Shown here piece after piece: positions 48,539-55,741 of a stretch of DNA of 64,000 nucleotides. The position numbers and the translations under genes were made by a program. Source of the stretch: Deltaproteobacteria bacterium (GTDB taxonomy: Bacteria > Myxococcota > JADLHZ01); contig JADLHZ010000047.1 of the NCBI GenBank assembly GCA_020848545.1, forward strand, positions 32,420 to 96,419, given 5' to 3'. The notes beneath the pieces are model-generated. The model searched no databases, was not told the origin of the DNA, and worked only from the letters and a program-made list of their open reading frames with translations. Position 1 is the first letter of the stretch. Each line of letters opens with the position of its first letter.

Positions 48539-50281
48539 TTAGATCGCGATCGCCTTGAGCAGATCGCCAAAGGCGTCGGCGGCTTTGTTGAAGCTCTCGC
48601 TCAGGCGCTGCTCTTGGTCTTGCTTCTCTTCGATGTCGTCGATGACCTCGCGCTGCGCGGTCTGTGCCTCGTGCACCGCGTGCATCAGCTCCTTGATCTC
48701 AGCTTCGACGAGCGCGAGCTGCGCGCGCAGCATCTCGATCGCGAGCTCCATCTTCGCGAGCTCTTTTTGGTAGTACGCGCCGATCACCTGCACGGCGCCG
48801 GACGCCAAGGTGGCGGCGGCGCTGGCCAAAGCGATGATGACGCCGATCGCCTTGGCTTGCGCCGCGACGCTCGCGCCGCCCGTCAAAGGCAGGGTCGCGA
48901 TGCTGTACGCGAGCATGAACACCGCCGAGGCGATCTGGATGATCATGACCGCGTCGGTGAACCAGGGATTGTCCTTGTACCAGTCCTTGATGTCCTCGGC
49001 GGCGGCGTCGAGATCGCGCGCGGCGTCGGCGAGGCCAAGGTTGCGGCACAGGCCGCCGACGAGCACGACGAGCTCGGGCAGCGTTTGAATGAACATCGTG
49101 ACGGTGCTCGCGACCGACGCGACCGCGACCATGGCTGGAAAGTGTGTGGCAGCGCTCAGCAGCATCGACGCGCCGGGCGCGAGCGTGCCGAAGCTCAAGA
49201 CGGTCGCGACGACCGAGGTGACGATCGATACGATGAGGCCAATGACAGTACCGATCGACTGCCACATGTGTGCGCAATCGGCGGCTTGCTTCGCTTTACC
49301 CGCCGCTTCAGCAGAGGACATTTGGATCCCGAGGATCCCGCCTTCTTTGCGCAAGATCTCGGCGATGATGCCCTTGGCCTCTTCCTTGAGCGCGGTCAGC
49401 GCGCTGCCCATGAGATCGAGATCTTTGCCGACGTCACCTTTGACGAGCTCGGCCGCGAGAAGAATATAGTAGGACGGGCTGGCGTCGAAGATCATCGTCC
49501 CGACGCGCGCGCCGATCTCACCGAGGATCTTCGGATCGACCGCGCCGCCGGGCCCCGTGAGGAATGCCGCGCGCTGGCTGACGACGGCTTTCGGGTCGAC
49601 GCCGTCGGCGCGGCCGCCGCGGGCGAGAAAAGAAGAGAGCATCCCGGCGGCGATCGTCTCCGACGGCACTTGCTCGCGCAGGACACCGTTGCCGAGACTG
49701 GCCTGCAATGCGCCCTCTCTCGCCGCGTCGCAGAAGTGAAGGGCAGCAGGCCCGAAGCGCTGCGCCATTGCCTCGCGCAGCGCGGCGTTCGGCTTGAGAT
49801 GCTCCTGGCACGCGGCGGCGAACACCGTGCGAAACTCGGCGCCAACCAGCTGATGAAAGACCGAGTCGGCCGGATTCGCCGTGAGGTAGCCGGCGCGATC
49901 GGTAAGCCAGCCAGCCGTTTGCCTGTCGAAGATGCGCTGAACGAGATCGTTTACCGTGAGCGCGGTCGCGCGGTGCATCTCGGCGGTCTCGACCGGACGT
50001 TGCCCGGGCACTTGGCCGTCGTGGTCCGGCAGATCGTAGTTGAGGAAAGGCCTCGTGAGGTCGCCGCGAGCCGCGCCGACGCCACTGCGATCGCCGGCGT
50101 TCTTGCGATCGACGGCGTCACGCTCGAACGACACGCCCGGCCGCTTCGTCGCGGCGGGCGCGGCCGGCAGGGGTGCGTCGACTCCTGGCCGCACGGCGCC
50201 GGGCTTCACCTGCACGTCGGCACGCACAGGGGCGTCGTGGCCCGGCTTCTGCGGCTGCCCATCCGCCCGGGTCACCGTCAT
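48539..50281 (-). CDS. IpaB/SipB/YopB (SctE)-like putative major translocator (580 aa)
   Basis: No signal peptide. Hydrophilic coiled-coil N-half. Two long hydrophobic hairpins (about aa 335-400 and 430-490). C-terminal amphipathic coiled coil. Pre-TM helix LLAAELVKGDVGKDLDLMGSALTALKEEAK resembles the IpaB-family pre-TM region. Start overlaps the stop of the SycD-like gene. Confidence 0.5.
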   Translation of the reverse strand: MTVTRADGQPQKPGHDAPVRADVQVKPGAVRPGVDAPLPAAPAATKRPGVSFERDAVDRKNAGDRSGVGAARGDLTRPFLNYDLPDHDGQVPGQRPVETAEMHRATALTVNDLVQRIFDRQTAGWLTDRAGYLTANPADSVFHQLVGAEFRTVFAAACQEHLKPNAALREAMAQRFGPAALHFCDAAREGALQASLGNGVLREQVPSETIAAGMLSSFLARGGRADGVDPKAVVSQRAAFLTGPGGAVDPKILGEIGARVGTMIFDASPSYYILLAAELVKGDVGKDLDLMGSALTALKEEAKGIIAEILRKEGGILGIQMSSAEAAGKAKQAADCAHMWQSIGTVIGLIVSIVTSVVATVLSFGTLAPGASMLLSAATHFPAMVAVASVASTVTMFIQTLPELVVLVGGLCRNLGLADAARDLDAAAEDIKDWYKDNPWFTDAVMIIQIASAVFMLAYSIATLPLTGGASVAAQAKAIGVIIALASAAATLASGAVQVIGAYYQKELAKMELAIEMLRAQLALVEAEIKELMHAVHEAQTAQREVIDDIEEKQDQEQRLSESFNKAADAFGDLLKAIAI

Positions 50282-53309: not shown

Positions 53310-55741
53310 CCGCCGATGTTGCCGATGATGCTCTCCGAGACTTTCGATGATTTCGCCATGAGCTCGCTCAGCATCGTCAGAAAGCGACTGCGCCGATCCA
53401 TGGCCATCTGGATCTTGAGTCCGAGCTCGCTGCTGAGATCGCCCAAGCTGTCCAAGTCGCCCTGAATGCGCTCGATCTCGGCATCGAGACCGGCGAGCGT
53501 CATCCGCGCGCCCTCGCCTTGTCGCGGCGCTCCCGAGCCCTTCGCATCGGCGGCCTTCGCATCGGTGGCGGCCTGCGCATCGGTGGCGGCCTGCGCATCG
53601 GCGGCGGCCTTCGCATCAGCAGCGGCCTTCGCATCAGCGGCGGCCTTCGCGTCGGTCGCGATCTGGGCGTTGGCGCCGGTTTGCTTCCAGCGGGTGAGCC
53701 AGGCGTTTCCGGCGCCGTCTTTCCAAGCGTTCAGGGAGGCGAGTTGCCCTTCGAGCTCCGCCAGTTGTCCGTCCTTAGTGAAGGCGGCCGGGATCGGCGG
53801 CATGTAGGTTTTGAGCTGGTTGATTTGGGCGTTGAGGATCCCGACCATGACGTCTATCGGGTCGTTGTGGCCCTTGCTCGACGCGGCCCAGGTGGCCGCG
53901 CTGCCGCCGGTGAAGTTATACTGCCGTTGTCTGCCGCTGTCCCAGTACGCGAAGTTGGTGGTCCCGGCTTTCAGGGCTTCGAGCTTGGGCCGGATGTAAT
54001 TCTCGAGCTCCAAGATCATGTAGCGTAGGCTGGCGGTCTGCGCGATGATGCCGCTCGGCCCCCCGCCACCGGCGATGGCGAAGATCCCCATCGATCCGGT
54101 GTTCAGCATCAACCCGCTCATCATCGCGTTGACGTCGCTTCCCGGCGGCATTCCCATGAGGTTCTCGGCCCAGGCTTCGCACATCTGCTGGATCGCGAGT
54201 TGCCAGTCCGGGGGGACGATGCCTCGGAGCTCCTCCGAGCTCATGCCCGCGATCTCGGCGAGCCGGCTCTCTTGTGCCTGGGCCGCCTCCCTCGCGGCGT
54301 CGGCGCTCTGTTTCTCTGCGACGAGCTTGTTGTAGTCGGCGAGGCTCGTGGCAGCGCTGGCGCTCACCCGCTGCAGGTAGCTCTCGATGACGGCCGTCGC
54401 GCTTGCGCGCGTCTCGACCTTGAGGCCGACAACGTCATGCAGCCACTCCTCGAACGAGTCGGTGCCACCGTGCTCCGACGCCGGGACGAGGTCGTAGAGA
54501 GCCCGCAGCTCTGCCTCTTGGTTGGGCGACAGCCCGAGATCGGCGGCAAGCCCCGAAGTTGCGAGGAGGTCGTTCTGCGACACCGGCTCGGTCGACACGC
54601 CATCGCCCTGCGTCGCGGGGTCGCCGCTCGAGCTCGTCGAAGCTGCCGCGGGCGGCGAAGCTTCCACCGGCAGCGGTGGCGGCCGCCAGTCATCATCGAC
54701 CGTCACCGGGGCGAAATCGTCGGTGTTGGCGTCGGCGTTGACCGTGTTCTTCGGCACGAAGAGCTCGTGCTGCGTTTGGAACGCTTCGAAGGTGGTGCGC
54801 GGATCGATGGCGTTGCTCGCGATGAGCGCGTCGTAGTGCTTGCGGATGTCGGCGCGTGCTTGCTCCTTCTGCCGGCGCATGAAGTCGAGCAGCGCGCGCT
54901 GCCGCTGCTTCAAGACGTTGTTCTTCTTCATCTCGTCGAGCCGATCGCGGAGATCGTTCTCGCCCTCCTTTGCGGCCTCGAACATCACGAGCTTCACCAG
55001 GGCGTCTATGTCGACCTCGCCGACGCTGATCCGCAGAGTGCGGAGGCCGGCGATGAACTGCACCGCCTTCGCCGACGGGAGGCTGAACACCTCCTCGTCT
55101 TCCCCGGCGCCCTCCGGACCAAGCACGGTATCACGGCCAAAGCGGCAGCTGCTCCTCCTCTTGCTTTCGATGTCGGCAAAGGACCCAAGCTGGTCGACGA
55201 CGGTGGTCTGGGCCTGGATCGCTGCGTATTCGCTGATGCCGCGATCGAGCAGCGGGTTGCGGTCGACATGGCCGAACATCGCTCGCAGGGCGTTGCCCCA
55301 GGCGGCGATCGTGCTCTTGGGATCGGCGGGAAGCGCGTCGAAAACCTGCTCGTCGACGGTGAGCAAATCGGCCACGAGCCGCAGGTCGCCGCTTTCGAGA
55401 ACGCCGTCGCCGACTGCGCTCAAGGGGGGGAGTGTCGCAGCGGCGGTGGTTGCCGTTTCGGCTATCGTGTTCTTGAGAACTTCGGCGAGCGCGCTCTTGC
55501 CGAGCGACTCCGGTCCCGACGCTTGCGCGCGCGCGCCCTCTTGCCCCGCCAAGAGATCACGGGCCTGCCCGCGCGACTGCTGATCGAGCTTGTCTTTGAC
55601 GGACGCCCCGGACACGGCGCCGGCGACGCGCTCCGCCGGCGACAGAGCGCCGACCGCAGGGCCGGTGGTTCCAGGAGAGATTGGCAGCGTCGGCGGAGGC
55701 GGAACGGCGCGAGGCTCAGGCTGTTTTCTGATGGAGCTCAT
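53306..55741 (-). CDS. Large (811 aa) signal-peptide-less, low-complexity protein; candidate secreted substrate paralogous to 9848..12352
   Basis: ATG at 55741 with GGGGGA RBS. N-terminal motif DIDALVKLVMFEAAKEGENDLRDRLDEMKK. (D-A-K/Q-A-A) repeat tract. Conserved C-terminal helix LDSLGDLSSELGLKIQMAMDRRSRFLTMLSELMAKSSKVSESIIGNIGG. Confidence 0.6.
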   Translation of the reverse strand: MSSIRKQPEPRAVPPPPTLPISPGTTGPAVGALSPAERVAGAVSGASVKDKLDQQSRGQARDLLAGQEGARAQASGPESLGKSALAEVLKNTIAETATTAAATLPPLSAVGDGVLESGDLRLVADLLTVDEQVFDALPADPKSTIAAWGNALRAMFGHVDRNPLLDRGISEYAAIQAQTTVVDQLGSFADIESKRRSSCRFGRDTVLGPEGAGEDEEVFSLPSAKAVQFIAGLRTLRISVGEVDIDALVKLVMFEAAKEGENDLRDRLDEMKKNNVLKQRQRALLDFMRRQKEQARADIRKHYDALIASNAIDPRTTFEAFQTQHELFVPKNTVNADANTDDFAPVTVDDDWRPPPLPVEASPPAAASTSSSGDPATQGDGVSTEPVSQNDLLATSGLAADLGLSPNQEAELRALYDLVPASEHGGTDSFEEWLHDVVGLKVETRASATAVIESYLQRVSASAATSLADYNKLVAEKQSADAAREAAQAQESRLAEIAGMSSEELRGIVPPDWQLAIQQMCEAWAENLMGMPPGSDVNAMMSGLMLNTGSMGIFAIAGGGGPSGIIAQTASLRYMILELENYIRPKLEALKAGTTNFAYWDSGRQRQYNFTGGSAATWAASSKGHNDPIDVMVGILNAQINQLKTYMPPIPAAFTKDGQLAELEGQLASLNAWKDGAGNAWLTRWKQTGANAQIATDAKAAADAKAAADAKAAADAQAATDAQAATDAKAADAKGSGAPRQGEGARMTLAGLDAEIERIQGDLDSLGDLSSELGLKIQMAMDRRSRFLTMLSELMAKSSKVSESIIGNIGG
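53519..53660. repeat. Imperfect 15/18-bp tandem repeats (about 8 copies; gccttcgcatcggcg-like) encoding DAKAA/DAQAAT units inside the 811-aa CDS
   Basis: Seen directly in the sequence. Both strands' ORFs show the periodicity (LRIGGG... on the plus strand). Confidence 0.8.

Follow-up and report, generated by a model that had tools for sequence, protein, structure and literature searches.

The chaperone and translocator genes of described type III secretion systems (T3SS) stand side by side. In Yersinia lcrH(sycD)-yopB-yopD, Pseudomonas pcrH-popB-popD and Shigella ipgC-ipaB-ipaC, the chaperone gene precedes, and is coupled to, that of the large hydrophobic translocator. In Salmonella pathogenicity island 2 (SPI-2; sseB-sscA-sseC-sseD) and locus of enterocyte effacement 4 (LEE4; espA-espD-espB), a class II chaperone built of tetratricopeptide repeats (TPR) lies beside a translocator with two hydrophobic regions and no signal peptide, together with hydrophilic helical partners that carry polymerisation-type termini. 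Much of this organization recurs at positions 48539-55741 of the stretch analyzed here, a 64-kb window (64,000 nucleotides; G+C ~67%) of the 101-kb contig JADLHZ010000047.1 from the metagenome-assembled genome (MAG) GCA_020848545.1 of a deltaproteobacterium. We give roughly even chances to the explanation that this locus forms a cassette complete in itself, which encodes chaperone-held substrates of the type III kind that are secreted independently of Sec, and that it is one copy of a family expanded specifically in this lineage.

Two features of known systems frame this proposal. Chaperones of classes II and III follow the phylogenetic distribution of T3SS (PMC13466201), so that an apparatus encoded elsewhere in the genome is the default expectation. 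In addition, T3SS genes need not be clustered: in Chlamydiales they are spread over four or more loci (PMC3459982), with two chaperone/CopB/CopD sets (PMC13466201). Because of this precedent, the position of the cassette away from any core cluster, which a sequence-only reading of this DNA had regarded as new, is not novel in itself.

The lineage is also relevant. Myxo-type T3SS are reported to lack needle, tip and translocon (PMC3459982; PMC12075869), and homologues of tip and translocon proteins were not found in these systems by Abby and Rocha (PMC3459982), which lends interest to translocon-like genes in a related lineage. The needle-less T3SS* (a non-flagellar T3SS, NF-T3SS) of Myxococcus xanthus likewise belongs to the deltaproteobacterial/myxobacterial lineage, and none of the T3SS* genes was seen in the window. 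No parts of a T3SS evolve faster, or are harder to recognize, than its translocators and tip proteins and their chaperones. The family described here retains a recognizable SycD-type chaperone, yet its large hydrophobic protein has diverged beyond all translocator models.

Layout of the six-gene cassette

Six open reading frames (ORFs), each with the codon-position G+C pattern of real genes, occupy the locus. They are designated A to F:

48539-50281, minus strand: gene A, 580 aa, NCBI locus IT381_13775, annotated as a hypothetical protein
50278-50808, minus strand: gene B, 176 aa, IT381_13780; the TGA of B overlaps the ATG of A (ATGA)
50809-50876: divergent intergenic region between B and C, 68 bp
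50877-51341 (alternative start 50859), plus strand: gene C, 154 aa (start ATG 50877) or 160 aa (start GTG 50859)
51338-52750, plus strand: gene D, 470 aa; ATGA overlap with C
52827-53309, plus strand: gene E, 160 aa
53306-55741, minus strand: gene F, 811 aa; 4-bp overlap with the convergent E

The sequence-only reading had placed the six genes correctly and had described their couplings, which the sequence confirms: B/A and C/D each overlap as ATGA, and the convergent genes E and F overlap by 4 bp. The cassette contains two paralogous pairs: C and E are 48% identical, and D and F are 30% identical over ~215 aa. For gene C, ATG 50877 is more likely to be the start than GTG 50859, because the sequence GAGAGGGGG lies 8 nt upstream and an independent gene call also gives 154 aa. 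The promoters of B and C are presumed to lie both within the 68 bp that separate the two genes, where a promoter scan found no sigma-70 consensus.

Comparison with described translocon gene sets

The likeness to the Yersinia, Pseudomonas and Shigella sets lies in the order and coupling of chaperone and large hydrophobic protein. The cassette differs from them in having no PxLxxP motif and no minor translocator, and in providing one chaperone per (putative) client rather than one for two translocators. The closer correspondence to lcrH-yopBD or sicA-sipBCD that had been read into the locus does not hold, as D and F are hydrophilic.

The likeness to SPI-2 and LEE4 extends to two related loci, L005 and L006, where a ~300-aa protein with one transmembrane (TM) segment follows the large translocator-like protein. 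In contrast to SPI-2 and LEE4, protein A remains under the SseC threshold, and the window cassette has no SseD/EspB-like gene. EspA and SseB measure ~190 aa, whereas D and F measure 470-811 aa, with up to 1183 aa in the related locus L001. Each hydrophilic protein here has its own (putative) TPR chaperone, which is not of the CesA/SseA type. Finally, the cassette is not part of a T3SS island and is present in at least seven copies per genome.

The chlamydial sets scc2-copB-copD and scc3-copB2-copD2 likewise have LcrH-type chaperones, lie away from the core and occur in more than one copy (PMC3459982; PMC13466201). There, however, two sets are found rather than at least seven, and the core T3SS loci are known. 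YscG-YscE/YscF and PscG-PscE/PscF offer a parallel for the remaining genes, as they too combine a small TPR palm protein with an SctF-like hairpin client; for the genes here, masking of the client would be by analogy. Unlike in these class III pairs, the client is a large multidomain protein instead of a 70-90-aa needle subunit, and no YscE-like partner was seen. What appears new is a set of highly divergent, amplified and dispersed translocon-like cassettes in which giant partners with needle-like tails each have a private (putative) TPR chaperone.

Protein B resembles class II chaperones

Protein B appears to be a genuine but divergent TPR chaperone of the class II (SycD/LcrH-like) type. It matches the NCBIfam model TIGR02552 (LcrH_SycD) at E=2.8e-20 (72.4 bits) over profile positions 3-134 of 136, a value that argues against a compositional artefact. 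The second-best NCBIfam model, SscA (27 bits), likewise describes a T3SS chaperone, and the Pfam matches are to TPR_1/2/9/16/19. In the PDB, the only natural proteins that match B in one long alignment are PcrH (3e-6), SycD (6.5e-5), AcrH (8e-5) and IpgC (8e-3). Thus, B has the size and TPR content of class II chaperones, and these are its closest solved relatives.

Direct comparison with SycD gives 28% identity over 106 ungapped residues across TPR1-3 (E=6e-8); the SycD sequence used as query was validated against PDB 2VGX (E=1.7e-90). The kinship with SycD claimed by the sequence-only reading is thus borne out, and the alignment "almost residue-for-residue" is not, given this identity and a score below the curated cut-off. 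A word-index search for homologues of B returned only B itself.

The genomic position of B is also that of a class II chaperone, which adjoins or precedes the gene of its hydrophobic client; here, the two genes share an ATGA overlap. In L001, L005 and L006, too, the gene directly upstream of the A-like one is B-like.

Protein A has the topology of a translocator

The following features of A are used below:

49046-49267, minus strand: hydrophobic hairpin 1 of A (residues 339-412), from Kyte-Doolittle hydropathy; conserved in 20/20 family members
48779-48964, minus strand: hydrophobic hairpin 2 of A (residues 440-501), from hydropathy, family conservation and the AlphaFold2 (AF2) model
50027-50047, minus strand: motif F-x-x-Y-x-L-P (A residues 79-85), invariant in the 12 closest family members

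The N-terminus of A has no hydrophobic signal; it is P/A-rich, with disorder predicted for residues 1-81, and is followed by a helical domain. Each of the two hydrophobic stretches (339-412 and 440-501) has sufficient length to form a helical hairpin, and the C-terminal helices are of coiled-coil character. The absence of a Sec signal, the two hydrophobic regions and the coiled-coil C-terminal helices together give the topology of SctE, and the whole combination (no signal peptide, two long hydrophobic regions, C-terminal coiled coil) is found in 20/20 members of the family. On this basis, A is best described as a signal-less, two-hairpin coiled-coil protein that is translocator-like (SseC/SctE-like) and probably membrane-active.

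When the first 130 residues of 12 family members are compared, FxxYxLP is the one block without variation. As class II clients bind their chaperone via the N-terminal domain, this motif is a candidate chaperone-binding site.

The family of A is very small: a HMMER search of 1.84 billion representative proteins produced 67 matches, of which ~20 were full-length. A word-index search returned A itself and P0002 only. SseC is the only curated translocator family that gives any signal for these proteins, with sub-threshold matches in 3 of 19 members (best 8.4e-5). The link is provided by P0045, a protein retrieved by the A-family profile from the 1.84 billion proteins at E=8e-6. P0045 reaches 35.1 bits (E=1.5e-8) on Pfam SseC (PF04888), above the gathering score of 30.2, and was the sole SseC-like protein in a Pfam scan of 20 remote partial matches. 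Homology of A to SseC/SctE is therefore considered probable.

Other searches placed A less specifically. An NCBIfam scan of 25 family members and remote relatives matched no T3SS translocator model. PDB sequence searches with A and with the A-family profile found coiled coils only and no translocator or tip protein, and the most frequent weak Pfam match across the family is DUF948, most others being to coiled-coil families. The AF2 model of A is all-helical and of low confidence (predicted local distance difference test, pLDDT, 66; predicted template modelling score, pTM, 0.32), with helices at 284-365 and 380-414 and a continuous helix from 470 to the C-terminus. Foldseek comparison of this model with the PDB gave no match with E<0.001; above that value it returned chemoreceptor, SMC or axonemal coiled coils, and the non-significant matches include the alpha-pore-forming toxins MakA, AhlB and SmhB. 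An IpaB/SipB/YopB layout had been assigned to A from its sequence. The absence of a signal and the two hairpins agree with this, membership of these families does not follow from the profiles, and the pre-TM motif of the IpaB family that had been proposed for A finds no profile support.

A possible needle-like hairpin at the end of protein F

Two parts of F are conserved in related proteins:

53309-53503, minus strand: C-terminal ~65-aa hairpin of F (residues 747-811), resembling the SctF needle subunit
54947-55564, minus strand: N-domain of F common to D (residues ~60-265), with the closing motif DIxALxxLVxxEAxKxxxxDLxxxLxxxKxxN

The tail of F shows some likeness to the needle subunits. When a profile of five F-tail sequences was compared with an alignment of seven needle proteins, hhalign gave a score of 24.8 (P=2e-4, probability 47%) over 57 columns, in end-to-end register and reaching both C-termini. 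The SctF alignment was validated against the PDB, where YscF, MxiH, PrgI, BsaL and PscF were recovered at 1e-29 to 1e-32. In a column-shuffle control that preserves composition, 0 of 400 shuffles reached 24.8 (maximum 20.4), and 15 real helical windows of the A family scored 7-14 against the same alignment. A relative of F in L006 (L006_417) weakly matches the needle hidden Markov models (HMMs) PF09392 (E=0.077) and TIGR02105 (E=0.061) in the right register; F itself matches neither of these two HMMs. The F-tail profile found nothing significant in the PDB. Together, these comparisons give moderate support to a needle-like C-terminal domain in F. Given the length of F (811 aa) and of its relatives (384-1183 aa), this would be at most a needle-like domain and not a needle subunit.

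Upstream of this tail, F comprises a P-rich disordered N-terminus, the D-type N-domain and a variable middle with Ala/Asp/Lys repeats. Alignment of D, F and their relatives reveals two common motifs that flank a hypervariable insert. The first is the internal helix that closes the N-domain, and the second is the C-terminal hairpin LDSLxE...LxLQxAMDRxSxxxxxLSNxLKKxSxTxxxIxxN, which is truncated in D. D thus has an S/T/P-rich N-terminus, an F-type N-domain and a shortened F-like C-terminal helix. By hydropathy, neither D nor F has a hydrophobic segment, so they are not minor translocators of the YopD/SipC kind. D matches no Pfam or NCBIfam family and nothing significant in the PDB, and the same is true of F. 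A word-index search with F also returned nothing, its candidate list being swamped by the Ala/Asp/Lys repeats, and the AF2 model of F (pLDDT 39) is unusable. An EspA/SseB-like reading of D and F, suggested by the look of the motifs, was rejected: PF03433 is not matched, and hhalign against EspA plus SseB gave P=0.61. A separate observation is that tandem low-complexity repeats of the (A/T)DAKAAAD type occupy F residues ~690-735 (53530-53680, minus strand), just before the conserved tail.

TPR proteins C and E

C has Pfam TPR matches and sub-threshold matches to TIGR02552 (3.9e-4) and SctY (1.7e-4). E is likewise sub-threshold for TIGR02552 (1.1e-8; 34.9 vs 104.8 bits) and SctY (6e-7; 29.9 vs 70 bits), and it matches the generic TPR model PrsT at 5e-9. 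The PDB matches of E are generic TPR proteins without exception. The class III large-subunit family (YscG/PscG) does not appear among the NCBIfam matches listed for C and E at E≤1.

C is the putative chaperone of D, and E that of F. This assignment draws mainly on genomic pairing, because the profile scores do not set T3SS chaperones apart from generic TPR proteins; E also adjoins an F-type gene in L001, in a different orientation. The sequence-only reading had described two paralogous SycD-related TPR genes, each with a substrate. The paralogy and the pairing stand, whereas the profiles do not support a specific relation to SycD.

Conservation and copy number

The only close relative of A is P0002 (45% identity), encoded on a 22-kb contig, L001, of assembly GCA_034680565.1. 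All six genes are present in L001 in a rearranged order, with identities to the window of 45% for A, 53% for B, 49% for C, 31% for D, 40% for E and 27% for F (39% in the tail). The D orthologue, d476, has the C orthologue adjacent to it, and the F orthologue, f1183, measures 1183 aa.

Richer cassettes occur in L005, also from GCA_034680565.1, and in L006 from a JGI metagenome. Both have the order F-type protein (384/417 aa), TPR protein, ~560-aa coiled-coil protein, three TPR proteins, A-like protein, 302/317-aa protein and a very large protein. One of the three TPR proteins reaches 8e-26 (90 bits) on TIGR02552, and the last of them is the B orthologue. The C-terminus of F is common to the 384/417-aa proteins. 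The 302/317-aa protein has one hydrophobic segment and directly follows the A-like gene, which is the position of YopD/SseD. L007 has a minimal trio: a protein of 654 aa whose tail is needle-like, a TPR protein and the SseC-positive P0045.

The ~560-aa coiled-coil protein (L005 6496-8199; L006 6670-8346) is conserved, has its own upstream TPR gene and is without counterpart in the window. Its weak, non-significant matches are to MakE (1.2e-4), the SipB N-domain and Inc-like models.

According to cluster look-ups, A belongs to a set of at least seven A-family proteins in this MAG (IT381_01380, _05600, _13775, _17075, _25765, _28520 and _31275), the most unusual fact about the locus and one that the sequence-only reading had missed. 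GCA_034680565.1 encodes at least four, on different contigs. Such numbers do not fit a single dedicated translocon and do fit a polymorphic repertoire of cassettes. Some paralogues, as in L012 and L013, have no adjacent chaperone gene.

Outside these assemblies the family is rare. A pattern scan of 185,579 species-representative genomes, a collection that excludes this MAG and GCA_034680565.1, did not find it, and a scan of a metagenome collection found one 1.6-kb fragment only. In a literature search covering the assembly accessions and myxobacterial translocators, no published account of the family came up.

In L012 (9087-9887, plus strand), an AraC-family regulator precedes the A-family protein P0009, which has no adjacent chaperone; this arrangement was seen only once. 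AraC-type activators act with class II chaperones in canonical T3SS.

Proposed mechanism

If the cassette encodes type III-kind substrates, B would keep A soluble in the cytoplasm, probably by gripping the N-terminal region around FxxYxLP. Once exported, A would act as an SseC/SctE-like pore-former, its two hydrophobic helical hairpins entering a target membrane. C and E would serve as small TPR chaperones for D and F. In the YscG/YscF pair, the TPR palm of YscG holds YscF's C-terminal half (PMC13466201); by analogy, the TPR palm here may keep the needle-like C-terminal hairpin of F (degenerate in D) masked until export. The F hairpin, once outside the cell, could bind to a helical needle-like polymer or form its cap, and the large variable domain of F would thereby be presented. 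Export would proceed via a T3SS-type apparatus encoded elsewhere in the genome.

A more far-reaching version is distinctly unlikely in our estimate. It holds that the cassettes are interchangeable "warheads" of an undescribed, T3SS-derived delivery system in an uncultured, probably predatory, myxobacteria-like bacterium, comprising scattered, chaperoned pore-formers and large needle-hairpin proteins. In this version, the hairpin proteins would form the cap or an extension of a needle-like polymer, with variable domains exposed for target binding. The cassettes would either supply the needle, tip and translocon functions that Myxo-type T3SS reportedly lack, or require no canonical injectisome.

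Weighing the alternatives

Three independent signals suggest a relation to type III secretion: strongly for the SycD-type chaperones, moderately for the SseC bridge, and moderately to weakly for the SctF-like tail. They are accompanied by a translocator-like topology, disordered N-termini, coupling of chaperone and client genes and, in relatives, a gene in the YopD position. Several results weigh against it. B scores 72.4 bits on TIGR02552 where the curated cut-off is 104.8, so that its homology is significant without being at equivalog level, and generic TPR models score about equally to T3SS chaperone models for C and E. A itself reaches 13.4 bits (E=0.058) on PF04888, below the threshold of 30.2, and matches neither the IpaB nor the YopB family, nor any NCBIfam model. 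Homology to SseC is held to be only probable since it relies on the single bridging protein P0045 and on conflicting registers, the direct SseC register of A disagreeing with that obtained through P0045. A strict PxLxxP chaperone-binding motif was not found in the N-terminus of A. The needle signal is carried mainly by the 384/417-aa relatives, and F alone scores 14.3 against SctF (P=0.03), at the top of the background range. Structure prediction (A model, Foldseek and F model) provided no usable fold evidence. No T3SS core family was found in a Pfam scan of the ~46 window ORFs supported by third-position G+C (GC3), a scan that covered ORFs of ~80 aa and more, above the size of e.g. SctF or SctS; within that scope, the earlier observation that the 64 kb hold no injectisome core genes is confirmed. 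None was found in ~10 related loci either, including L001, L004-L008 and L011-L013. The window cassette has no SctB-type minor translocator partner, its neighbors being unrelated, and at least seven A paralogues per genome is unlike any known translocon.

These same results lend some weight to a different account, which we nevertheless consider unlikely: a T3SS-independent cassette of a chaperoned alpha-helical pore-forming toxin, in which the TPR chaperone shares ancestry with SycD and D and F have accessory or targeting roles. Delivery would be by contact-dependent killing machinery, vesicles or lysis, and the expansion would reflect an arms race in a predator like that of polymorphic toxins. 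The lack of a T3SS core gene near any family member at ~10 loci counts in favour of this account, as do the scattered paralogues (at least seven in one MAG and at least four in a second assembly), those among them without a chaperone (L012, L013) and the failure of A on translocator models. The faint matches of A to MakA, AhlB and SmhB, and the MakE match of the neighboring coiled-coil protein, point the same way; none of these toxin matches is significant, however. In addition, no immunity-like gene is evident, no other secretion marker (type VI or type VII secretion system, Sec/TAT signal, PEP-CTERM) was seen in the cassette, and the co-occurrence of three independent signals, the SycD-like chaperones, the SseC bridge and the SctF-like tail, tells against the account.

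It is less probable still that these are resident envelope proteins that are never secreted, with A a four-helix inner-membrane coiled-coil protein, the TPR proteins its assembly or regulatory partners, and D and F cytoplasmic or periplasmic scaffolds. The topology of A, which combines four hydrophobic helices and a long coiled coil with the lack of a cleavable signal, would also fit a protein inserted by the signal recognition particle, DUF948 and coiled-coil families dominate its weak Pfam matches, and the neighboring genes are of housekeeping or signalling type. Against such a role stand the specific, full-length SycD/LcrH match of B and of several TPR proteins in related loci, the translational coupling of a chaperone to a hydrophobic client, the long disordered P/S/T-rich N-termini of A, D and F, and the needle-like C-terminal hairpin. 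The family is also extremely rare and diverges rapidly, which is unusual for core envelope proteins. That there is no functional module at all, only generic TPR genes beside unrelated hypothetical ones with a T3SS likeness arising from helical composition, is highly improbable. Most similarity scores of A, C, D, E and F are indeed sub-threshold. Against this, all six genes are found again as a group in a second assembly, with identities of 27-53%, the chaperone/A-like pairing is found also in L005 and L006, the genes share 4-bp overlaps, B matches its family at E=2.8e-20, and the shuffle controls of the needle comparison preserve composition.

The fusion of a needle-like hairpin to large variable proteins and the presence of at least seven scattered copies in one genome are unusual. 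Should they depend on a T3SS, the cassettes would represent the first multi-cassette, polymorphic translocon repertoire and offer a handle on the use of T3SS by non-pathogenic, possibly predatory bacteria. If the genome has no T3SS, pairs of class-II-type chaperones and pore-formers would exist outside type III secretion, and the value of these chaperones as T3SS markers would have to be reconsidered.

Other genes in the window

Directly adjoining the 3' end of gene A are two translationally coupled genes (46368-48502, plus strand), one for a Ser/Thr protein kinase that ends in a PEGA domain and one for a TPR protein that ends in two TM helices; no connection between this pair and the cassette was found. 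On the other side, a 997-aa DUF11-repeat protein with a Sec signal and a 623-aa protein (55881-60742, minus strand) are encoded directly upstream of F. As they lie on the same strand, they may be co-transcribed with F, and this neighborhood is not conserved in L001.

Farther away, two adjacent genes for bacterial microcompartment vertex proteins of the EutN/CcmL type (97 and 85 aa; 28556-29124, minus strand) lie beside a class II aldolase gene (27215-27946, plus strand), and may together form a small microcompartment-related locus. The stress trio PrkA, YeaH (DUF444) and SpoVR is split between 3351-6006 (plus strand) and 20791-22899 (minus strand), with DUF444 and SpoVR adjacent and PrkA ~15 kb away on the opposite strand. 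A 1051-aa ORF at 39536-42691 (minus strand) has an M32 (Taq-type) carboxypeptidase domain at residues 556-1047 only, its N-terminal ~550 residues being unmatched; since the ORF was delimited from stop to stop, its upstream portion may have been called wrongly. A 660-aa leucine-rich-repeat (LRR) protein is encoded at 13805-15787 (minus strand; LRR_8, 5e-23). LRR proteins are common effectors or adhesins in bacteria that interact with hosts or prey.

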